14,150 bases of DNA. Origin: Oligoflexales bacterium (GTDB lineage: Bacteria > Bdellovibrionota_B > Oligoflexia > Oligoflexales > Bog-1112). Of this stretch, positions 134 through 14,150 are shown one piece after another (the first letter of the stretch is position 1; each line of letters opens with the position of its first letter). Made by a program: the position numbers and the translations under genes. The notes under the pieces were generated by a model. That model made no database searches and was not told the DNA's origin. It saw only the letters and a program-made list of their open reading frames with translations. The DNA is taken from the NCBI GenBank assembly GCA_045105515.1, contig JBGCDR010000019.1, positions 1-14,150 on the forward strand, written 5' to 3'.

Positions 134-268
134 CGAGCAGCAAGCAGATTAGCCTCATAGACTAAACTAAATCCGCCTTCCGAAGCGATGGAATTTTTTC
201 TTCTGCACTTAATCTAGCAATCCGCCAATTCTCTACGTACTAAGGAATCATGGGACTTAGATCTAAAA

Positions 269-1824: not shown

Positions 1825-4800
1825 ATGAACAAAAATATTTTTAAATTTTGCTTATGCTTGATTTTTATAGATACTACTTTCAATATAACATTCGGCAATT
1901 CATCAACTACAAATAATTCACTCACATTTTTAGCATTTGGTGATGGTGGAACAGGTAACAGCAAGCAAAAAAAGGTCGCAGATTCGATGGTAAGAATTTG
2001 CTCTATACAAGGTTGCGATTTCGCAATCATGCTGGGTGACAATATATACAACGATGGAGTTGACAATGTCGATGATGAGCAATTTCAGACAAAATTCGAA
2101 GTACCCTATGGACCATTGGCAATTCCATTCTACGTTGCCTTGGGAAATCATGATGCCAGGGGAAATACTCAAGCTCAAATAGATTATACTGAAAGATCTC
2201 TTTGGTGGAATATGCCTGCTAGGTATTATGCAGAAACTATAGAAGATCTAATGATCATAGCAATAGATAGCAATGATTTTGGAGAAGATCAAAGACAATT
2301 TCTGGCAGATCAATTAGAGAATTCTTCTGCTTCACTTAATATTGTATATGGCCATCACCCAATCTATTCATATGGAAGTCATGGCCATACTTCATATTTG
2401 GTAGATGATCTCTTGCCGATCTTATGTGAATATCCGAACGTAGTTTACATTTCTGGGCATGATCACGATCTACAAGTTTTGGATTCAGAATGTGGAGTGC
2501 CACTCTTTGTATCTGGTGCAGCTGCAAAATTGCGCAAGACTAACTACGGACGTAGAACCGTGTGGAGTGAAAGTACATACGGATATACCTTATTTAGCTA
2601 CAATTCAGGGATTCTAAATGTAAGGTATTACTCAGAAGATGATGAGATTCTCTTCGACAGAATCTACTCATTCTCTGATAATGAGCAACTAACTGAGAAA
2701 GTTATTAGTTTTGATGGAAACTGGTCTTATCATGATCAAAACTTAGACCCAGGGCTTAGCTGGATGACTGAAGATTTCGATCATGGTACCTGGCCCCAGG
2801 GAAATGCTCATTTGGGCTACGGTGATGGAGATGAACAGACTGTCATTGCAGGAGGAAGCCCAAGTGTATATTTTCGTAGATATTTTGAAATTTCTGAAGG
2901 GCTTAGCTGGGCTCGACTCAAAGTCCATCATGACGATGGGGTAGCAATTTGGATTAATGGTCGGAAAGTCACCGAAAAACATATGGCCAAGGGCTTGGAT
3001 CATGATTCTTATGCAAGTTCACAGTCAAAGGACAATGAGCTAACAATTTTAGATATGGATACAAAACTATTAAATGAGGGATTAAATACTATTGCAGTTA
3101 TGGTTAAACAGCGCTCCCCAACTTCAAGTGACGTATCTTTCGACCTTGAACTCACTGCAAACTATTTACAAACCCCTCTTCCTAGTTCAATAGAATTTGG
3201 ATCAGATTGGCTTTACCACGACTTGGACTACTCTCCCAGTGCTAGCTGGCAACAAAGTGATTTTGACGACCGTTCTTGGGCTCTAGGCACCGCACAGCTC
3301 GGATATGGAGATGGTGACGAAAAGACGGAAATAGCTCAAGGTAGCCCCTCTGCATATTTCCGGAAAAAAATTTACATAGCTGAAGAAATAGCTTGGGCAA
3401 ACCTTAAGGTACTCCACGATGACGGAGTCGCAGTTTGGATTAACGGTGAGATAGTCCTCGCAAAACATATGAATAATGGCTTAGAACACGGTGTCTATGC
3501 TAGTAGCCAGTCAGGTGAAAATGAACTAACAAATATAGAATTAGATGCCAATCTGTTCCAAAAAGGATCTAATACAATCGCGGTAATGATCAAACAACAT
3601 TCAGCTACTTCCAGCGATATTTCTTTCGATTTAGAACTCACTCCAAATTACGACAAAGATCCTCTTCCTAAATCCATAGCATTTGGTTCCGACTGGCAGT
3701 ATCACGCAATTGATCAAAGTCCCGGTGTAAATTGGTTTGAAAAAAGTTATGACGATGAGAATTGGCAACAGGGAAAAGCTGAATTGGGTTACGGAGATGG
3801 AGATGAAAAAACCGAAATTAGCAAAGGAAGCCCTTCCGCTTACTTCAGGAAAGAAATACTTATTTCTGATGGAATTCAATGGGCTCAACTAAAGGTACGT
3901 CATGATGATGGAGTCGCAGTATGGATCAATGGTCAAAAAATCTGGGAAAAATATATGAACAACGGGATAGAACACAACGTTTATGCCAGCAGACAATCTC
4001 AAGACAATGAGCTAAGCACAATCGATTTGCCTCCAAGTTTATTTCAAGAAGGGGCCAATACTATTGCAGTAATGCTCAAGCAGCACTCAGCAACATCAAG
4101 TGACCTCTCTTTTGATTTAGAACTCTTAACCAACTATGATGGCAACCCTCCCCCTCCCGCTGAAGATGGAATAGTCCATATTGGAACCACAGAAATTAGG
4201 GACTCTCGTGGAGTTATTAACATTCAACGTCCATCGGGTAGTAAGCAGGGTGACCTCCTTGTTCTTTTCCTACATCGCACTGATGATGATCTCCCTCTTT
4301 TTGTAGATGGGTGGAAAAGAGTAGCTGAATGCTATAAAACTAACAATGGGCATCAATGTGCCACTGAACCTGACTGTACGAATTGGCACAATGACTATTT
4401 CTGCGAGAAGTTTGGCAGCAAGGGAAATGGTCATGATCTAGCACAATCAGTATTTATCCGTGAAGTAAAACCTGGAGAAAAAGATTCCTACCACTTTAAT
4501 CTTAATCTAGATAGCAGTGGGCATCCTGGTTGGGCGATTCTAACCGCATTGCGTGGAGCAGATACACGCAACCCGGTTAGAGATTGGTCTACCACTGGCT
4601 GCGATAAAAACGCAGATAGCATATTTCCAAGCGTTTATGGGGAGAGTGGTGATATGCTGCTCCTATCACAATCATTCGATGATGCAATAGCTAAATCTAA
4701 ATTTGGAGCACCTTCTGGTACATCGACAATTGGTTATGTAAGTAAAAGTGATGAGGCTGGTTTCCTTTTTGCAGGCATATTAGGTAATTCAGGAAACACC

Positions 4801-4878
4801 GGTAACAAGAAAACTCAAGGAGTGGGTGGACCTAGCTGTAAGGATGCTCTTGTGTCAATAACGATCAAAGCAAAATAG
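1825..4878 (+). CDS. Secreted multidomain metallophosphoesterase (purple acid phosphatase/ACP5-like) with three tandem beta-sandwich-like repeats and a Cys-rich C-terminal domain
   Basis: RBS GAGG upstream and N-terminal basic plus hydrophobic leader. All five PAP metal-ligand motifs are present: GDGG (1939), GDNIY (2035), GNHD (2143), GHH (2350), GHDH (2455). Repeats at 2704-4137; PPPP linker, then a tail domain from 4168. Confidence 0.9.
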   Translation: MNKNIFKFCLCLIFIDTTFNITFGNSSTTNNSLTFLAFGDGGTGNSKQKKVADSMVRICSIQGCDFAIMLGDNIYNDGVDNVDDEQFQTKFEVPYGPLAIPFYVALGNHDARGNTQAQIDYTERSLWWNMPARYYAETIEDLMIIAIDSNDFGEDQRQFLADQLENSSASLNIVYGHHPIYSYGSHGHTSYLVDDLLPILCEYPNVVYISGHDHDLQVLDSECGVPLFVSGAAAKLRKTNYGRRTVWSESTYGYTLFSYNSGILNVRYYSEDDEILFDRIYSFSDNEQLTEKVISFDGNWSYHDQNLDPGLSWMTEDFDHGTWPQGNAHLGYGDGDEQTVIAGGSPSVYFRRYFEISEGLSWARLKVHHDDGVAIWINGRKVTEKHMAKGLDHDSYASSQSKDNELTILDMDTKLLNEGLNTIAVMVKQRSPTSSDVSFDLELTANYLQTPLPSSIEFGSDWLYHDLDYSPSASWQQSDFDDRSWALGTAQLGYGDGDEKTEIAQGSPSAYFRKKIYIAEEIAWANLKVLHDDGVAVWINGEIVLAKHMNNGLEHGVYASSQSGENELTNIELDANLFQKGSNTIAVMIKQHSATSSDISFDLELTPNYDKDPLPKSIAFGSDWQYHAIDQSPGVNWFEKSYDDENWQQGKAELGYGDGDEKTEISKGSPSAYFRKEILISDGIQWAQLKVRHDDGVAVWINGQKIWEKYMNNGIEHNVYASRQSQDNELSTIDLPPSLFQEGANTIAVMLKQHSATSSDLSFDLELLTNYDGNPPPPAEDGIVHIGTTEIRDSRGVINIQRPSGSKQGDLLVLFLHRTDDDLPLFVDGWKRVAECYKTNNGHQCATEPDCTNWHNDYFCEKFGSKGNGHDLAQSVFIREVKPGEKDSYHFNLNLDSSGHPGWAILTALRGADTRNPVRDWSTTGCDKNADSIFPSVYGESGDMLLLSQSFDDAIAKSKFGAPSGTSTIGYVSKSDEAGFLFAGILGNSGNTGNKKTQGVGGPSCKDALVSITIKAK
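2704..4137 (+). repeat. Three intragenic tandem repeats, exact period 486 nt (162 aa)
   Basis: Units start at 2704, 3190 and 3676 and end (SFDLEL..NY) at 3165, 3651 and 4137. Shared motifs: W.YH, G.A.LGYGDGDE.T, GSPS.YFR, LKV.HDDGVA.WING, G.NTIAVM.KQ.S.TSSD.SFDLEL. Confidence 0.97.
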
Positions 4879-5197: not shown

Positions 5198-6469
5198 TCA
5201 ACTCAGACTCTCCACTACATAACTTTCTGGCACCTGCACTACTAAGAAGAGCATAACAAAAGCTGCATAGGCACTGATAAGAGCACCAGGCGCGAAAGGA
5301 CTCAACCTTCCTAGGCCGAGCATCAAAACTGGAGTAAAGCCACCAAAAATAGACATTCCCACATTATAAGCTATGCTTGAGCCTGTATATCGATACACCT
5401 GAGCGAATGTACGTGCTAAAACTCCAGGGAGAGGTCCTGAAAAAAAACCTAAAAGAACTGAAAACAGCATAATCCCGAAACTGACTTCAAATTGGCTACC
5501 GTGATTAATGAGGTAAAAAATAGGCCAAGACAAGATCATAATGAGGCCAGCAGTTCCTCGCAAAATTGCTGTTGGTGCCCATCTATCAGCCAAATAACCA
5601 GAAAAGAGGATTGCAATGCACAAAACTAGTGTATGCTTACTAGTCAAAGCTAAAGCCCGACCGAGCTCATAAGAACGTTCTTGATGCAGATAATTTGCAA
5701 AATATCCACTTAGAGTATAAGTCATCAGCCCAACCAAGCCTACCATGCCAATGCAACATAAAATTTCATGTGCCTGACGCCTCCACAAGAGTCTAATAGG
5801 CTCGAACATTCCCTCTGCTGGAAACTCTCCTTTCCCCTTATCATCAACCATGCTGATCCTAATCAAAGTAGCAGCAAACCCGACAACTATTCCACTCAAC
5901 ACGAAGGGAAGACGCCAGCGCCAACTTGGTATCGATTCTAATGCAAAGCCTTCGACCATAGCAGACATCCAGAACCCACCACTTAGCATTCCAAAACCTG
6001 CAACAGCAACAGTAATACTAGTTGTGAAAGAATAGCGATCTTTCAGCAAATCTAACTTGCTCAAATAAGTTGCTGCACCACTATACTCAGGACTCACAGC
6101 AAAACTCTGCAGACTGCGAAAAAAAAGCAGTAGGCAAGGAGCTAACCAAGAGACTTCAGAATAATCGGGGATAAAACCGATGGCAGTGGTTGAAGCTGCC
6201 ATAAGAAGCATAGACCACAAAAGCGCAATTTTACCACCTTTACGATCACCTAGGGCTCCAAAAACCACTGTCCCCAGTACCCTAAAGAAAAAGCTAGCAG
6301 CAAAAATTAACCAGGTATAGATCAATGCATGCTCACTAGGAGGCAGGAGCTTAAATGCAATGATTTTAGAAGCATAAGCAAACAAAGTGTAATCTAAAAA
6401 CTCTAGATAAGTCCCTAGAGCTGAGGAAATGACAAATAAGCGAGTTCTATATGATTGCTGGGTACTCAT
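5198..6469 (-). CDS. MFS transporter, metabolite:H+ symporter (MHS; ProP/KgtP/CitA/ShiA-like) family
   Basis: About 12 hydrophobic segments. GTYLEFLDYTLF (cf. GN.LEW[YF]DF), FFFRVLG..VFGALGDRKG, TTAIGFIPDY....WLAP.LL..FR.LQ, WRWRLPF, SGYLADR and RYTGSSIAYN are all MHS signatures. Substrate cannot be assigned. Confidence 0.9.
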   Translation of the reverse strand: MSTQQSYRTRLFVISSALGTYLEFLDYTLFAYASKIIAFKLLPPSEHALIYTWLIFAASFFFRVLGTVVFGALGDRKGGKIALLWSMLLMAASTTAIGFIPDYSEVSWLAPCLLLFFRSLQSFAVSPEYSGAATYLSKLDLLKDRYSFTTSITVAVAGFGMLSGGFWMSAMVEGFALESIPSWRWRLPFVLSGIVVGFAATLIRISMVDDKGKGEFPAEGMFEPIRLLWRRQAHEILCCIGMVGLVGLMTYTLSGYFANYLHQERSYELGRALALTSKHTLVLCIAILFSGYLADRWAPTAILRGTAGLIMILSWPIFYLINHGSQFEVSFGIMLFSVLLGFFSGPLPGVLARTFAQVYRYTGSSIAYNVGMSIFGGFTPVLMLGLGRLSPFAPGALISAYAAFVMLFLVVQVPESYVVESLS

Positions 6470-6674
6470 AATTCCACTTTTAGGCTTGAGTTTAACTAAA
6501 TGGCGTAAAGCCTAACATGGATCAGTTATCTGACAAGAAAAAAGCTTCATAAAAGAAAGCTATAACCCAACCCTTGAAGGCCAATAGCTAGCGTTTGATC
6601 CTAACATTTTCAGCTTTACAAGCGCCTAAGCTTCCGATAAAGAAACGAACTTCCGTCGTTTAATGGGAGTGTCT

Positions 6675-7382
6675 ATGAGAGCGATTCAACTTACCTTAAT
6701 AATAATAATTTTCTTTCTGGACTCCAGATTGAGAGCCCAAGAAGAGCAAACCTATGCTCTACAAGATTTGCAAGAGATTTTTTCCCTATTTAATTTTGAA
6801 GACATAAACTTTAACGGTAAACAGCAAATCATAAACAATCTTATACACTGCTTAGAATTAGACAAACAAAGTGATATACCAGCAGATATCCTCATTTCCA
6901 TCAAAAGTGACTATTCAAGCTTTATTAGCTCAAAAAAACCAGTAAATTTTACTTTTAAATACTGCTATTTGGCTGCTCAAGATCTAGACGCTTTTCTCAA
7001 AGAGTTTAATTTAGAAATTCGCCAGCTAGCTACAGTCCTTAAAATTAAGAGGATGGATGGCAACACCTACTTACCTCTTGCTGCTCTAATCATTACTCTC
7101 TCCTGGGACCCCAAACTACATTTTTTTTTACAAGAGAAATATGCTGCATTTGAAAAAAATAAATTAACCCTCACAGGAGGTCCATATGGAGAGTATGCCT
7201 ACTGTCTAAGCACTCTTTATGGAGCCAGTACTTATATACTTAAATATATAATCGCTTTTACTGATATTCATGAACACCAACAGGCCGAGGAATCAAAAAC
7301 AAGCAATATACTTAGGTTCATTGCAAGATGTTTAAGTCGAAAAACAAGTGATGCTGAAGTCCCATTAATAAGCAAATCATAA
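6675..7382 (+). CDS. Hypothetical secreted protein
   Basis: Open frame 6663-7382. ATG 6675 is preferred because GGGAG (6665-6669) is positioned as its RBS. Leader MRAIQLTLIIIIFFLDSRLRA|QEE looks like a signal peptide. No family recognised. Confidence 0.75.
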   Translation: MRAIQLTLIIIIFFLDSRLRAQEEQTYALQDLQEIFSLFNFEDINFNGKQQIINNLIHCLELDKQSDIPADILISIKSDYSSFISSKKPVNFTFKYCYLAAQDLDAFLKEFNLEIRQLATVLKIKRMDGNTYLPLAALIITLSWDPKLHFFLQEKYAAFEKNKLTLTGGPYGEYAYCLSTLYGASTYILKYIIAFTDIHEHQQAEESKTSNILRFIARCLSRKTSDAEVPLISKS

Positions 7383-7472
7383 TCCCAATAAATTTTGCCC
7401 TTAACTCTAGACTTTTTAATAAGTGTCATCTATTAAATATTTCTCTTAATGTCACCTTGCCTTGAGGTAATT

Positions 7473-7926
7473 ATGTTTGGAAAATACTTTCTATTTTCAT
7501 CCTTCGCTTTTGCTAAGCTAAGCTATCTGTATTTTCACCAAATACTTTCACTCGCCCTCTGATTTTAAATAAATTTGGTACAGTGCCGCTTAGTTCACAT
7601 ACTAAAACTATAGAAGTCCCAAACGAGAGCTATATAGACTTTCTTGGGAAGTCTCCTTATGCCAATAAAATTACTAATATTTTTGCAAATAAGGATCTGT
7701 CAATTAGTGAAAACTTCCAGATAGAACTTGACCCAGATAGCTGGGAAAATCAAATTGGGGCTAACAAAGAAGAATTCTATACAAAGATAAGAGCAGACAG
7801 CAAAATAGGCCTGTCTGTCATGCGCTACCTTATAAGAAACAGAGTTCAGGAAGAATTGTGTTAGTTTTGTTTGCTGGAGAACAGCAGTGGATCTTAGAAA
7901 ATACTCTTCATGTATGTACTGATTAA
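7473..7926 (+). pseudogene. Probable frameshifted gene for a small hypothetical (possibly exported) protein, incorporating ORF 7583-7864
   Basis: RBS GAGGT (7464-7468) then ATG 7473. Removing one GCTAA unit from GCTAA-GCTAA-GCTA (7512-7525) joins this start in frame to ORF 7583-7864. A third, overlapping open frame (7765-7926) may be the true C-terminus. Confidence 0.55.
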
Positions 7927-7952
7927 TTTAACTTACATAAAGGAAGTAGATC

Positions 7953-9329
7953 TTGAAACAATATACCATGATAGATACTTTGTTGATTTTTATCTGCTTT
8001 TGTTTACAAACAAAAGCTATCTATGGAAATGAGACCATAAATGTTCAGATTGCTGGAAACTCTTTTGAAGTAAATAAGATTTCCAGCAGTAGGGGGCCAG
8101 ATGCAATCGATCTAAGCCCAATCTTTAAGGACCTCGGTTTTAAAATCTATGATCCAGGATTGACATACACAGTCTCTACTAGCTCATCTATCTCCTTTAT
8201 TGATGGACCTGCAGGTAAACTACTCTATCGTGGTTATCCAATCGAAAGTCTCGTGTTAAAAGACTATGTAGAAGTAGCTTACCTGCTTATTTTTGGGCAA
8301 TCTCCTTCTGAAAAAGAGTTATACGATTTCAACGAGCGGATACGCCACTATGCCCAACTCAATCCTTCAATGTCAAAAAATATAAGCGACCATGCTAAGC
8401 ACTCAGACTCAATGAGTTTACTGGCTAGATTTATCATGACTTTAGCAGACTACAAAACCCACCTAAATAAGGAGAATCTAAATCAAGATGAGAAACTAGA
8501 TTTTATGGCATTAGTTCTTGGAAAAATACGTAGCTTTGTCACAAAACTTTACCAAGTCAAAACAAATACAACTCTTTCTTCTGACAGTAAGTATTTTTTT
8601 GATCACGATAGTTCATACAGTGAATCTTTTGTTAAAGAGGCTTACCGAGGATCTGAGTTAGAAGAAAACCTATCACTAGCATCTAAAGCTATCAATATGT
8701 TGTTAGTATTACACGCAGACCATGGTCAAAACTGTTCGACATCCACTTTAAGAGGTGTCATTTCGGCAAAAGCATCACCTTTTTTTGCTCTTAATGCCGA
8801 GGTTTCAGCCCTTTCTGGAGCGGCTCACGGTAAAGCAAATCATGATGTCATTAAACTCTTAAAAAGTATCGAAAAAAAAATCTATGCCAAACAAGAGATT
8901 TTTGGTGGAGAACCAGTTGACTACCTCACTAGCGAAATTGATATCCTTTTAGCTAGGGTAAGAAACAAGGAAATTCTGCTTCCTGGCTTTGGACACAGGG
9001 TCTATACTTCCTTTGACCCCAGAGCAAGAATTCTCAAAAAACTGAGCAATGAAGTTTTAGCTACGTTCGATAAAGGAAAAGGCCTTTTGACTATAGCGTC
9101 GGCGTTGGAACAAGCAGCCCTAGCAGAACCTTTTTTGATTAAACGCAATCTATACCCAAATTTAGATTTCTATTCTGGGATAATCTATACAGCCCTTGAA
9201 ATCCCAGAGGAAATGCTAACAGTAATGTTCGCCTTTGGGAGAGTATCAGGATGGCTAGCTAACTACCATGAAATGACTAATGAGCCGTTTAAAATTTGGC
9301 GTCCTGGACAGGTATATATAGGTGAATAA
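7953..9329 (+). CDS. gltA: Citrate synthase (type II/GltA-like, divergent) with N-terminal signal-peptide-like extension
   Basis: YDPG...SISFIDG..GKLLYRGYPIE, EVAYLLIFG, LHADHGQNCSTST, GAAHGKAN, GFGHRVY..FDPRA, LYPNLDFYSG, FAFGRVSGW, RPGQVYIG. TTG start with AAGGA RBS (7940-7944); alternative ATG at 7968. The symbol denotes homology; this may be a paralogue rather than the housekeeping gene. Confidence 0.92.
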   Translation: MKQYTMIDTLLIFICFCLQTKAIYGNETINVQIAGNSFEVNKISSSRGPDAIDLSPIFKDLGFKIYDPGLTYTVSTSSSISFIDGPAGKLLYRGYPIESLVLKDYVEVAYLLIFGQSPSEKELYDFNERIRHYAQLNPSMSKNISDHAKHSDSMSLLARFIMTLADYKTHLNKENLNQDEKLDFMALVLGKIRSFVTKLYQVKTNTTLSSDSKYFFDHDSSYSESFVKEAYRGSELEENLSLASKAINMLLVLHADHGQNCSTSTLRGVISAKASPFFALNAEVSALSGAAHGKANHDVIKLLKSIEKKIYAKQEIFGGEPVDYLTSEIDILLARVRNKEILLPGFGHRVYTSFDPRARILKKLSNEVLATFDKGKGLLTIASALEQAALAEPFLIKRNLYPNLDFYSGIIYTALEIPEEMLTVMFAFGRVSGWLANYHEMTNEPFKIWRPGQVYIGE

Positions 9330-9382
9330 TAACCGGGAGATATAGAATCAACTGGACGTTCAATCAAACATTTAATTCAAAA

Positions 9383-10915
9383 CTACTCAAAATTATTAAC
9401 TCTAAGATATTCTAAAGCAGCATCACCTTTTAAAAAGCCCAAACCTAAGGAGCCCGAATCTTGGGTTCCCTGTAATGCGGCTTCCCGCAAAGTGGTATAA
9501 ACAATATTTGTTGCATTTTTTTTAGTAAAATGTATGTAGGGATCCCTTGCAATTACCTCAAATAAAAGAGCTGCGAAGGCAGAAAGCTGCGGAGCTGCAA
9601 AAGAACTACCAGACTCGAAGACAACATTCGCCCAACTAAAAAGGCCTTCACCATTAAGAGCAAGGCTATGGGTATATATAGCTTCAAAGCTTCCTGGGAC
9701 TGTTGCTGTTAGAGCAGCTTCTTGCCCAGATAATTCTGCATTAATGGTAAAAAATACTTTTGGTGCCTCTTCCCAGCTTTTTACATAATCACGAATTAAA
9801 GCCGTATCATATGCTGACAAGTCACCTGGCTTCCCTAAACCCAATCTTTGACGCCTTGGAGAAAGGATACCATTAATATCAGTTCCAGAATTGCCCATAG
9901 CTTTACTAATAATAGCACTTTCTCCAATGAAGCTTAAAAATCTAGCAAATTGGCGATTTACCTTCCCACCTTGACCTATGAAAGGGCGACTAATATTGAC
10001 TACCTGGTACCCATCAACAAAGGCAATATATTTGAAAGCCTCGATGGCATGAGAATTTGATGCTGCAATGGGAATGATGGTAGCTTGAGGAGCTAGAGTC
10101 AAGATCACATCAATCACAGCGTTTCCATGGCTAAGCGAAACCGGATTTCCAAAGGTCTTTAAATCTAATATTCTTGCTCCGTCATAATGCCTTCTTTGTT
10201 TTTTTAATAGCTCAGAATCAAACAAGTCAAAAACTACTATACCTACATCCTTGCCATTATAATTGGCTCTTAAATTCTTTGATTGACTTAGATGCAACTT
10301 AGGATGAAGAAAATCTATTATAACATTTATGGCGGCATTCCAATCGTATATCTGTTGCTTTATAAGCTTTTCATGATCCTTATCACTAGAGCTATCTTCA
10401 AGCAATATTTCCAATAATTGCCAATACTCACCAACTTGTGCTGGCCATTTATAAACTCTCTCTTGCTCAAGCCATAGCATCCTTAGTTTTTCTAGAATTC
10501 CAATTGGATTTTTTGAATTAAGCGGAAGCTTGCTGACCCTAAAAAAGATATCTCTTACTAAACTGTGCATACGGAGCACTAGTGGGCTTAGTGAATCTCC
10601 AACAGGGGGGATGCCAAGTCTAGAATTAATTAGGCCAACCCCCTCAATGACACAATTAACATGAGTTTCCAGATGCAAGAGAATTTGGTGCTTAGAAACT
10701 GAATGTCTTTTTCCATCACTATTAAAAATAGAAGTAAGAAAGACTCTAAGTGCATCTTCTGAAGAAGCTGTATCTATTTCGCTACAAAAATTTGGCTTAT
10801 CTATTACCAAGTTAGATAATTGTCTTCCTAACAATTTTCCAGGACCTGGGCAAATAAAACCATTAAAGACAAAAAAAGCTATAAAATAATTAGCTCTAAT
10901 ACAGACCGAAAACAT
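9383..10915 (-). CDS. Divergent S8 (subtilisin-like) serine peptidase with large N-terminal domain and hydrophobic leader
   Basis: Catalytic residues in subtilase order: D230 (YNGKDVGIVVFD), H263 (SHGNAV), oxyanion N342 (KAMGNSG), S438 (SGSSFAAPQLSAFAALL), plus C-terminal LGLG.L. RBS AAGGGA upstream. Confidence 0.82.
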   Translation of the reverse strand: MFSVCIRANYFIAFFVFNGFICPGPGKLLGRQLSNLVIDKPNFCSEIDTASSEDALRVFLTSIFNSDGKRHSVSKHQILLHLETHVNCVIEGVGLINSRLGIPPVGDSLSPLVLRMHSLVRDIFFRVSKLPLNSKNPIGILEKLRMLWLEQERVYKWPAQVGEYWQLLEILLEDSSSDKDHEKLIKQQIYDWNAAINVIIDFLHPKLHLSQSKNLRANYNGKDVGIVVFDLFDSELLKKQRRHYDGARILDLKTFGNPVSLSHGNAVIDVILTLAPQATIIPIAASNSHAIEAFKYIAFVDGYQVVNISRPFIGQGGKVNRQFARFLSFIGESAIISKAMGNSGTDINGILSPRRQRLGLGKPGDLSAYDTALIRDYVKSWEEAPKVFFTINAELSGQEAALTATVPGSFEAIYTHSLALNGEGLFSWANVVFESGSSFAAPQLSAFAALLFEVIARDPYIHFTKKNATNIVYTTLREAALQGTQDSGSLGLGFLKGDAALEYLRVNNFE

Positions 10916-12049: not shown

Positions 12050-12976
12050 TTATTTCAACATTTTATACAAAGTACAAAAAGCAGTAAAACCAATTAATAA
12101 TGGATTTGTTCCCAGCTGACTTGCCGAACTTGATGAATAGTGGCAGCTCAAACGATTACTTCCTGACCAGTCTATTGGACACTTGTTAAACTCATCATTA
12201 TATGTGTCTGCTGCTACTGTTTTATAAGCATCCAATGTATTGCGATACTCGGCATTCCATGTGCTAAATCGAAGAATGGTATCAACTTCTTTTTCAGACA
12301 ACCAGATTCCAGTTGAGTTGCTAATGGTATTATTAGATTGGATGAGTTTTAAGGTCTCCTCCCAAGTTATCTGGCCTTGAATTGGTCCATTCAAAGAACC
12401 TTTGATTGCTAGATCTTCCACAATATCTCTACCGTCTTCACACCAGTCATCATATTCATCTGCAGCTGCAAGTTCGCATTTATCTGGAAAAAGGGTAGTT
12501 TTGTAACAACCGCTATGCCCAATATAAGCTCCATCGAATTTTTTATTCATGAGATCTCTTAGTTCATCTTCCAAGCTGCCAGTAAACAATGTTACGGGCA
12601 GAAGTGTGTTAACTTGCCTGCCTTTTAGAGATGTTATTGTTGCTGAGTTAAAAAAATAATAGTTTTCCTGAGTAGAATTTGAAAATGAAGCTATCCTCCT
12701 TTCAGCTTGATCCAATAAATATTTTTTCAGACCTTCGTCCATTTCACGAGATTCTTTCTCAATCTCGTCTTGAGCACTACAAGCAAAGTTGCGACCATCT
12801 TCACAAGCTCTCCTTTTCGCTTCCTTTTTTTCGCTATCACAGGAATTTCCTGATGACGAAGATAAGGCACGGATGCCCCTTTCATTAGCTAAGCTATAGT
12901 GATTCAAAGAGGCTAAACAAATAAAACTAACTAAAAGAATACGTCCTAATGCGATAAAATTAGTTTTCATTTTCAT
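12050..12976 (-). CDS. Hypothetical secreted Cys-rich protein with C-terminal hydrophobic tail
   Basis: Signal-like leader ending ...HYSLA|NE, eight Cys in the predicted mature domain, and C-terminus SSSSASQLGTNPLLIGFTAFCTLYKMLK. RBS-like AAGGG upstream. Confidence 0.8.
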   Translation of the reverse strand: MKMKTNFIALGRILLVSFICLASLNHYSLANERGIRALSSSSGNSCDSEKKEAKRRACEDGRNFACSAQDEIEKESREMDEGLKKYLLDQAERRIASFSNSTQENYYFFNSATITSLKGRQVNTLLPVTLFTGSLEDELRDLMNKKFDGAYIGHSGCYKTTLFPDKCELAAADEYDDWCEDGRDIVEDLAIKGSLNGPIQGQITWEETLKLIQSNNTISNSTGIWLSEKEVDTILRFSTWNAEYRNTLDAYKTVAADTYNDEFNKCPIDWSGSNRLSCHYSSSSASQLGTNPLLIGFTAFCTLYKMLK

Positions 12977-13325: not shown

Positions 13326-14042
13326 GTGAAGATATTTTACTACTTCATATTCTTAATGTTCTGCACCAGCTCTAGCTCCAAAGCTGGAACCTCATATTCA
13401 AAACCTAAGGCAGCAACTCGTAAAGTTGTCATTTGGGAACAAGTTTGGCTATATTCATCGTATTTAAGATCCCCCTTAAAAGACAAACCCATTAAAAATA
13501 TTAGAAAAAATCAAATCAGAAAACTCTTAGATAAAACCAAGAGAAGAGTGCCGATTGAAGGTAGTTGGTCTTCAAAACATATATATATTTTCCAAAATAA
13601 GAAATTATTTCTACCCAAACACGGAAGCGACCTATTCATTTTTGCTTCCCTAGTACATTTTACAATTGATCATGAAAATAGTTCCAATCAAGAAACTACA
13701 CAAATAAAATACCTCCCCTTATACAAAACTGGAGATGCCTATCCATGCGCTATCATCGTTGAATCTGAATTATTGGATTTAATAAACGAAGACATTCCTG
13801 AAGGCCACTTCAGCAAAGAACTTAACGTATCAAATTTTGGCAAGTACCGAGCAAAAACAGTAGATAATTTCCAAAAAGTTTTCCTTCATATGAATCTACT
13901 ACCAAGTATTTTGAATGCGATAGGTTTAAAGTTACCGGATGATGCCGAATTTGAACTTTCTCATGCTGCAAAATCCATTCGAGTAAACAGGTTTTATCAT
14001 CACCCAGACACGAGCATTGACCGAAATGCTTTTATTTCTTAA
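13326..14042 (+). CDS. Hypothetical secreted protein
   Basis: 238-codon ORF in AT-rich DNA with GTG start and leader MKIFYYFIFLMFCTSSSSKA|G. No family recognised. Confidence 0.72.
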   Translation: MKIFYYFIFLMFCTSSSSKAGTSYSKPKAATRKVVIWEQVWLYSSYLRSPLKDKPIKNIRKNQIRKLLDKTKRRVPIEGSWSSKHIYIFQNKKLFLPKHGSDLFIFASLVHFTIDHENSSNQETTQIKYLPLYKTGDAYPCAIIVESELLDLINEDIPEGHFSKELNVSNFGKYRAKTVDNFQKVFLHMNLLPSILNAIGLKLPDDAEFELSHAAKSIRVNRFYHHPDTSIDRNAFIS

Positions 14043-14150
14043 TTGAGTCAGTATAACTACTTGTTTAAATTTTCCGACACATCAGTTAATTCAACTATTT
14101 CGTACTAATTTATTTTTGTCCTATCAAGGCCAACTTGATGCTTTATAAAT

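Follow-up and report, generated by a model that had tools for sequence, protein, structure and literature searches.

Citrate synthase (CS) works in the cytoplasm or the matrix, and the substrates on which it acts are found only inside cells. The plant enzyme CSY3 of Arabidopsis presumably carries an N-terminal targeting extension, of the PTS2 type, to the glyoxysome or peroxisome; we found no paper on an exported bacterial CS in the open-access literature searched. In Chlamydia trachomatis, glycogen enzymes reach the inclusion by secretion and draw on host-derived substrates (PMC4829429), and the phosphoglucomutase CT295 is also secreted (PMC9251005), as these two reports describe. Here we analyse a CS homologue encoded on a 14,150-base contig of an Oligoflexales bacterium, for which an original prediction, made from the DNA, had proposed a signal peptide and a role outside the cell's own cytoplasm. 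This contig (C19), which the window covers in full, belongs to a 6.29-Mb metagenome-assembled genome (G000; 461 contigs, 90.9% complete, 4.8% contamination); the open reading frame (ORF) lies at 7953-9329 (+), starts with TTG and encodes 458 amino acids. We found that the protein carries a hydrophobic leader of a kind shared by all known members of its family, and that it retains the invariant active-site residues of CS. On balance we favour the reading, drawn from its sequence, that it is exported by the Sec pathway and is probably still a catalytic CS-like enzyme.

A hydrophobic leader in a rare family of citrate synthases

The homologue belongs to a family with five known members. A search of 5.8 billion protein clusters returned three close relatives, P0003 (70% identity), P0004 (67%) and P0005 (66%), after which identity fell to 41%; a search of 1.84 billion representatives added P0123 (40% identity, 496 aa). 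A profile of these five members, the four close ones and P0123, found no further member, its scores running from 864 to 750 bits and then dropping to 409. No family member was found in genome contigs (80 loci kept, best identity 38%) or in metagenome contigs (two loci, 37% and 33%), and the family, with five clusters in 5.8 billion, is very rare. We placed the family in a 66-sequence tree (IQ-TREE short search, SH-aLRT support), in which the four close members group together and P0123 joins them on a long stem (0.84 + 0.47), with support of 100 and 97 on the two starred branches. The family clade falls within bacterial type II CS and is separate from the canonical copies that the genome itself carries, and its position as one clade on a long stem suggests a single old origin.

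Those canonical copies are two further CS genes on contigs C60 (450.7 bits) and C29 (425.2 bits), both leaderless and with the canonical motifs and tail. The gene at 7953-9329 is therefore not the only CS of its genome; had it been the only one, this would have spoken against a repurposed paralogue. The second, leaderless gltA that the original prediction had suggested looking for is present twice over.

The first 25 codons of the ORF (7953..8027, +) read M/L-KQYTMIDTLLIFICFCLQTKAIYG, and the corresponding residues 1-25, MKQYTMIDTLLIFICFCLQTKAIYG, precede the start of homology. They form a signal-peptide-like leader with an n-region MKQYTMID, an h-region TLLIFICFCL and a c-region QTKAIYG, the last of which places Ile at -3 and Gly at -1. 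Homology begins after it: residue 27 of the query aligns with residue 6 of 4tvm and residue 35 with residue 15 of 7e8n, structural alignments start at residue 25-28, and the Atlas match spans residues 25-458. AF2 places the leader apart from the fold, as an isolated helix (residues 6-23) of low confidence (pLDDT 60-68). It is thus an addition to a GltA-type enzyme, as had been claimed, with residue 26 onward aligning with the very start of solved type II CS. No lipobox was found in the leader, whose Cys residues follow Ile and Phe and not Gly, Ala or Ser, nor was a twin-arginine motif (RR), and no Cys stands at the matching leader places in the query's orthologues; with neither lipobox nor RR, a lipoprotein or Tat signal was ruled out.

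We found that all five family members have a hydrophobic N-terminal extension of 23-25 residues, while none of the 191 canonical type II homologues (415-450 aa) that made up our control set has one; the leader is more than a chance feature. The five leaders end in I-Y-G, S-Y-G, L-F-A, I-Y-G and S-L-A, and each abuts either the start of homology or a polar linker, which in P0123 runs for about 20 residues after the S-L-A site. Cleavage by signal peptidase I calls for a small residue at -1 and a permitted one at -3, within a few residues of the end of the hydrophobic core, and all five members have such residues at both positions. Identity among the leaders of the four close members is only 17% (24/138 paired positions), compared with 69% in the mature part, which is the pattern expected of a signal peptide, constrained in kind but not in sequence. 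The nearest homologues therefore share the leader, although not its letters.

Measurements on the control set point the same way. The best 10-residue Kyte-Doolittle windows of the five members score 3.03, 3.01, 1.90, 2.56 and 2.32, against a canonical median of 0.69 (n = 191); a single canonical homologue has a window of at least 2.0, and this window is a strand of the domain itself. The DPG-like motif stands at residues 64-66 in the close members, compared with a median of residue 42 in the canonical set (range 41-64; pattern found in 115/191). Four of the five members have K or R before the core (in the query, K2 is offset by D8), and the charges flanking the core, read by eye, favour an N-in/C-out topology in the same number, the exception being P0005. 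The mature parts of the family contain one or two Cys, compared with five or six in the genome's own canonical CS; the median over the 191 canonical CS is three, and 14 of them have one or none, so that the low count fits export only weakly. Leaders of the same style occur elsewhere in this genome on proteins whose role demands export, such as GspD, PilP and a Metallophos protein encoded in the window (MNKNIFKFCLCLIFIDTTFNITFG). A genome-wide signal-peptide rule of our own flagged 640 of 2574 long ORFs (25%) and was too permissive to be used as evidence.

The leader is also difficult to remove by a different choice of start codon. Translation before 7950 is impossible, as an in-frame TAG (7947..7949, +) closes the upstream frame. 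A Shine-Dalgarno-like AAGGAAG (7940..7946, +) lies 6 nt 5' of TTG 7953, no such motif precedes ATG 7968, and comparable AGGA/GGAA motifs are found 5' of four other genes in the window; the ribosome-binding site favours TTG 7953, as originally proposed. Public gene calls disagree, one starting at TTG 7953 (458 aa) and another at ATG 7968 (453 aa). The candidate in-frame starts are TTG 7953, ATG 7968, TTG 7980 and TTG 7983, each of which retains the hydrophobic core, and then TTG 8160, use of which would cut some 45 conserved residues from the N-terminal domain (the orthologues show conservation over residues 26-69). The original prediction was right that no start follows the leader until TTG 8160, and needs the correction that ATG 7968, TTG 7980 and TTG 7983 lie within the leader; its view that the leader is hard to skip stands, with the frame closed upstream and no in-frame start between 7983 and 8160. 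A promoter and terminator scan of 6400-9500 was uninformative: it returned 7 promoter-like sites where 9.0 were expected, and 1 terminator-like site where 2.3 were.

Leaders were also seen on CS homologues outside the family. Among 127 examined representatives of at least 380 aa, five bear a leader: P0005 and P0123 from the family, and the metagenomic homologues P0132, P0135 and P0243, whose signal-peptide-like leaders end in V-L-A, S-H-A or A-G-A. These last three keep the catalytic motifs of the CS domain: P0132 and P0135 have HADHEQN and HGGAN, and P0243 has HGGAN with HADHGFN and is without the N-terminal domain. They fall elsewhere in the tree, where the starred branches force at least two leader origins, though the search was short and support is weak in other parts, and leaders on CS thus seem to have arisen more than once. 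A further metagenomic homologue, P0157, has an N-terminal extension of about 55 residues that is polar and of low complexity, not hydrophobic, and it shares the LPGFGH variant described below.

Fold, active site and family-specific changes

The mature CS domain comprises residues 26-458 (8028..9326, +) and includes the type II N-terminal beta domain at about residues 26-69. It matches Pfam PF00285 with 305.6 bits over residues 69-451 (gathering cut-off 27), and its best solved relatives, 7e8n (5.2e-75) and 4tvm, are type II CS. The AF2 model, built from an 84-sequence alignment, has a pLDDT of 92.4 and a pTM of 0.89, and Foldseek aligns it to 7e8n and 2h12 with TM scores of 0.82-0.89. The beta domain appears in the model as strands 28-33, 36-43 and 51-53, and alignment to type II structures runs from residue 27 of the query.

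We found that all 31 columns that are invariant across 84 diverse CS are kept in the homologue. They include those of His292 (8826..8828, +), which aligns with the catalytic His in the AHGGAN motif of E. coli GltA, of His348 within GFGHRVY (8994..8996, +), aligned with a catalytic His, and of Asp405 within NLDFYSG (9165..9167, +), aligned with the catalytic Asp. We take the E. coli equivalents of these three residues to be H264, H305 and D362. H257, R357, R430 and R450 also lie in invariant columns and align with the matching residues of GltA, by which they presumably bind oxaloacetate or citrate. The catalytic codons at 8826, 8994 and 9165 had been correctly placed from the DNA, and the further claim that substrate-binding residues are retained is borne out by these Arg and His residues. 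All five members keep each of the universally invariant residues, even P0123, which shares only 36% identity with the query. Of the 128 columns that are at least 95% conserved in the 191 canonical CS, the four close members all retain 93, a number that falls to 79 once P0123 is included.

Outside these positions the family has changed in ways of its own. Insert 1 (residues 310-317, IYAKQEIF; 8880..8903, +), recognised in the alignment, has the same length in P0003, P0004 and P0005, and P0123 has an insert at the same place. Insert 2 (residues 331-336, ILLARV; 8943..8960, +) was recognised in the same way. Between them the two inserts, 8 and 6 residues long, extend a hairpin of two helices (295-317 and 322-337; pLDDT 97-98) before the GFGHR motif. 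A further family insert of about 6 residues lies near residue 214. The stop codon (9327..9329, +) follows straight after RPGQVYIGE, so that the canonical C-terminal tail of about 12 residues is missing; this loss is common to the four close members, and P0123 has only three residues more. The four close members show no conservation in the stretch that aligns with the RHTM segment of the E. coli enzyme, which we take to be its NADH site. The homologue is a diverged member of the CS family, probably works as its other members do, and should not be counted as an equivalog of GltA, because curated cut-offs are not reached, the tail is missing and the predicted location differs.

Export and catalysis weighed against the alternatives

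Under the preferred reading, a diverged type II CS paralogue would be made with a Sec-type (signal peptidase I) signal peptide, and the leader would direct Sec export and be cleaved near residue 25. The dimeric enzyme would then assemble outside the cytoplasm, in the periplasm and possibly with onward release by a type II secretion system (T2SS), and would retain CS-type chemistry, in which an acyl-CoA is condensed with a 2-oxo acid. Its substrates would come from a host or prey cell, whose interior would be needed as a workplace because acyl-CoA and oxaloacetate are intracellular metabolites.

A route out of the cell through Sec and T2SS exists in the genome. A full T2SS cluster at C36:42000-61999 encodes two GspC and two GspD proteins together with GspE, F, G, J and K. 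The two GspD secretins (796 and 676 aa, both with an N0 domain) are encoded next to each other, as are the two GspC proteins. A Pfam T2SSL match on C60 proved to be PilM of the genome's PilMNOPQ pilus cluster and was excluded as T2SS evidence. The genome also has six full-length TLC/NTT nucleotide-transporter genes (388-677 bits), at C74:14248-15699, C181:16531-17970, C166:4667-6130, C40:45082-46533, C393:20543-22006 and C190:9435-10832, of a family that was unmatched in all 14 control genomes. Transporters of the NTT type are characteristic of bacteria that draw nucleotides from their host cell, and the six genes fit a host- or prey-dependent life. Six such genes are an unusually large set for a bacterium with a large genome (6.3 Mb). 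The original observation is confirmed, and its interpretation as a repurposed paralogue acting outside its own cytoplasm is supported in part. The extra gene copy, the conserved leader, the intact fold, the retained active site, the Sec and T2SS route and the six NTT genes are seen directly; the export of the protein, with its cleavage, final location, substrates and role, we infer.

A more specific form of this reading is a minority possibility. The protein may be a secreted metabolic effector, carried by Sec and then T2SS into a host or prey compartment, where it would condense the victim's acetyl-CoA and oxaloacetate to citrate. The victim's acetyl-CoA pool would be drained, and the carboxylate product could be imported by the bacterium. 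The homologue would then be a founding member of a small family of secreted CS, and the similar leaders would have arisen separately on other CS lineages. A periplasmic protein that binds or cleaves citrate, the other role that the original prediction had suggested, is likewise a hypothesis.

The preferred reading of a Sec-exported, probably catalytic enzyme has several points against it, and these need to be considered together. Our case for export comes from rules applied by eye and from comparison, and nothing ties the homologue to the T2SS, whose substrates are not known to share a defining sequence motif. We know of no periplasmic acetyl-CoA or oxaloacetate. The gene is accessory and not a core trait, because no orthologue was found in a genome of the same genus (G001), whose matching contigs, two of 2482 and 3555 bases, stop short of the region, or in 130 other genomes of the phylum (E <= 1e-100); none was found in the 40 relatives searched either (best identity 41%).

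Further points concern the domain itself. In all four close members 21 of the 128 near-invariant columns are changed. The changes include HADHEQN to HADHGQN, HGGAN to HGKAN, LMGFGH to LPGFGH, YKN to YTS, HPM to D(S/P)M and GRLPGW to GRVSGW. Among them, a K-to-T change falls at what we take to be the position of a CoA-phosphate contact in the pig enzyme, where P0123 retains K, and an E-to-G change adjoins the substrate-binding His. The E-to-G change in HADHEQN was ruled out as a sign of lost function, as a scan for LHADHGQN with GAAHGKAN returned 497 CS genes, many of them from Acidimicrobiia. Every NCBIfam equivalog cut-off is missed, with 352.3 against 505 for NF004126 and 295.2 against 485.15 for TIGR01798, and ordinary CS activity is therefore not assured.

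These features would fit a protein that is exported but no longer an enzyme, serving as an envelope or secreted protein that binds ligands or has a structural role on a CS fold (moonlighting). Besides the changed columns, the lost tail and the missed cut-offs, the long stem branch in the tree and the lack of an obvious acyl-CoA source outside the cytoplasm argue for such a protein, and Caulobacter CitA, a CS reported to act independently of catalysis, is a precedent (PMC7083601). However, the catalytic His, His and Asp and the Arg and His residues at substrate positions are kept in all five members, including the distant P0123, as is expected under continued selection for catalysis. We therefore regard an exported non-enzyme as unlikely.

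The leader also has features that run counter to export. The core of the query is short (10 residues) and its n-region has a net charge of only about +1, while P0005 has no K or R before the core and has positive charges after it. An arrangement that would suit P0005 is an uncleaved, N-out membrane anchor with the enzyme inside, that is, a cytoplasmic CS isozyme held at the inner membrane, for instance beside a carboxylate transporter. The uncharged stretch of P0003, at 17 residues, is near the length of a membrane span, a gene for a carboxylate-type transporter of the MFS lies 1.5 kb away, and the problem of substrate supply would disappear. On the other hand, the family cores span 10-17 residues and are under the typical length of a membrane span, four of the five members are positive before the core and neutral or acidic after it, and the residues at -1 and -3 suit cleavage in all five, with a polar linker in P0123 that is typical of the stretch after such an S-L-A site. 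The MFS gene is moreover conserved in G001, where no CS orthologue was found. Taken together, this makes the anchor quite unlikely.

Very unlikely, finally, is an ordinary cytoplasmic third CS isozyme whose N-terminal stretch is untranslated or forms a harmless or regulatory helix: the two public gene calls (458 and 453 aa) leave some room for it, but the frame is closed at 7947-7949, each possible start retains the core, the next start after 7983 deletes conserved residues, and all four relatives have a like leader where the 191 canonical CS have none.

Genomic setting and comparison with known systems

RpoB of this genome is 74-79% identical to proteins of an Oligoflexales bacterium, Oligoflexus sp. 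and Pseudobacteriovorax antillogorgiicola, which places the genome in Oligoflexales. The contig belongs with the rest of the assembly. Its GC content is 37.4%, compared with 38.3% genome-wide, its two ends (positions 1-140 and 14012-14150) match repeats carried by 26 further contigs of the same genome, and its flanking genes resemble those of G001 (MFS 81%, AEC 69% and a 510-aa gene 46% identical); contamination or mis-binning was thereby ruled out. The left end is matched by 12 contigs and the right end by 14, with an identity of 94-100% and mostly at the ends of those contigs, and the two ends of the window are not repeats of each other. A segment of about 60-90 bases related to window positions 139-230 recurs on at least 24 contigs of G001. 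A mobile element present in multiple copies, at which the assembly breaks, probably accounts for the contig-end repeats.

Upstream of the CS gene, the MFS gene (5198..6469, -) encodes a transporter of the metabolite:H+ symporter family, which includes carriers of tricarballylate and other carboxylates. It matches Pfam MFS_1, and its scores, 199.6 bits for TIGR00883 (cut-off 443) and 132.8 bits for TcuC, are below the curated cut-offs; its tie to the CS gene is one of proximity only. ORFs 6663-7382 and 7583-7864 immediately precede the CS gene and share its strand (+), and the first has a signal-peptide-like start. Neither has a family match or a paralogue in its own genome, and neither was matched on the two G001 contigs compared. 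Leader-like hydrophobic starts occur on four neighbours without assigned function: 6663-7382, 9383-10915, 12050-12976 and 13326-14042. Searched against Pfam at E <= 1, the neighbours without assigned function gave only a weak subtilase match in the 510-aa protein of 9383-10915 (-), around GSSFAAP (Pfam E 0.0099; mycosin 2.1e-4). This protein has a hydrophobic N-terminus and is conserved beside an AEC-type transporter in G001 (46% identity). Farther away, the gene at 1825-4878 (+) encodes the Metallophos protein, of 1017 aa, whose start resembles a signal peptide and which has CBM-like and PA14 matches besides its calcineurin-like phosphoesterase domain. Three repeats within it (2791-2861, 3277-3347 and 3763-3833) are spaced 486 nt apart.

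A conserved export signal on an apparently active CS would mean either that the enzyme meets its substrates inside another cell or that the envelope hosts a new chemistry. In the first case, a lineage with predatory relatives would possess a new type of metabolic weapon, or of tool for foraging. Enzymes regarded as cytoplasmic but tagged for export suggest that host- or prey-dependent bacteria run part of their metabolism outside their own cytoplasm, and the homologue will be of real interest if its export and activity hold true.

Set beside the bacterial type II CS (HyCS, 7e8n; Acetobacter aceti, 2h12; E. coli GltA, 4g6b and 1nxe), the homologue has the same fold (TM 0.79-0.89, 36-41% identity), the N-terminal beta domain and all of the invariant active-site residues. 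It differs from them in its 25-aa leader, in the inserts of 8, 6 and about 6 residues, in the 21 changed columns and in the lost tail. Arabidopsis CSY3 (9x0i) is likewise a type II-like CS (215.8 bits, TM 0.81-0.84 to the query), but it is eukaryotic and has another type of signal; at 30% identity it is more distant from the query than bacterial CS are, and a eukaryotic origin was rejected on this ground. The secreted enzymes of Chlamydia belong to other families and use type 3 secretion, and their secretion is reported to have been demonstrated by experiment. In both cases, nonetheless, a normally cytoplasmic metabolic enzyme would be sent outside the cell's own cytoplasm, here by a predicted Sec-type leader only.

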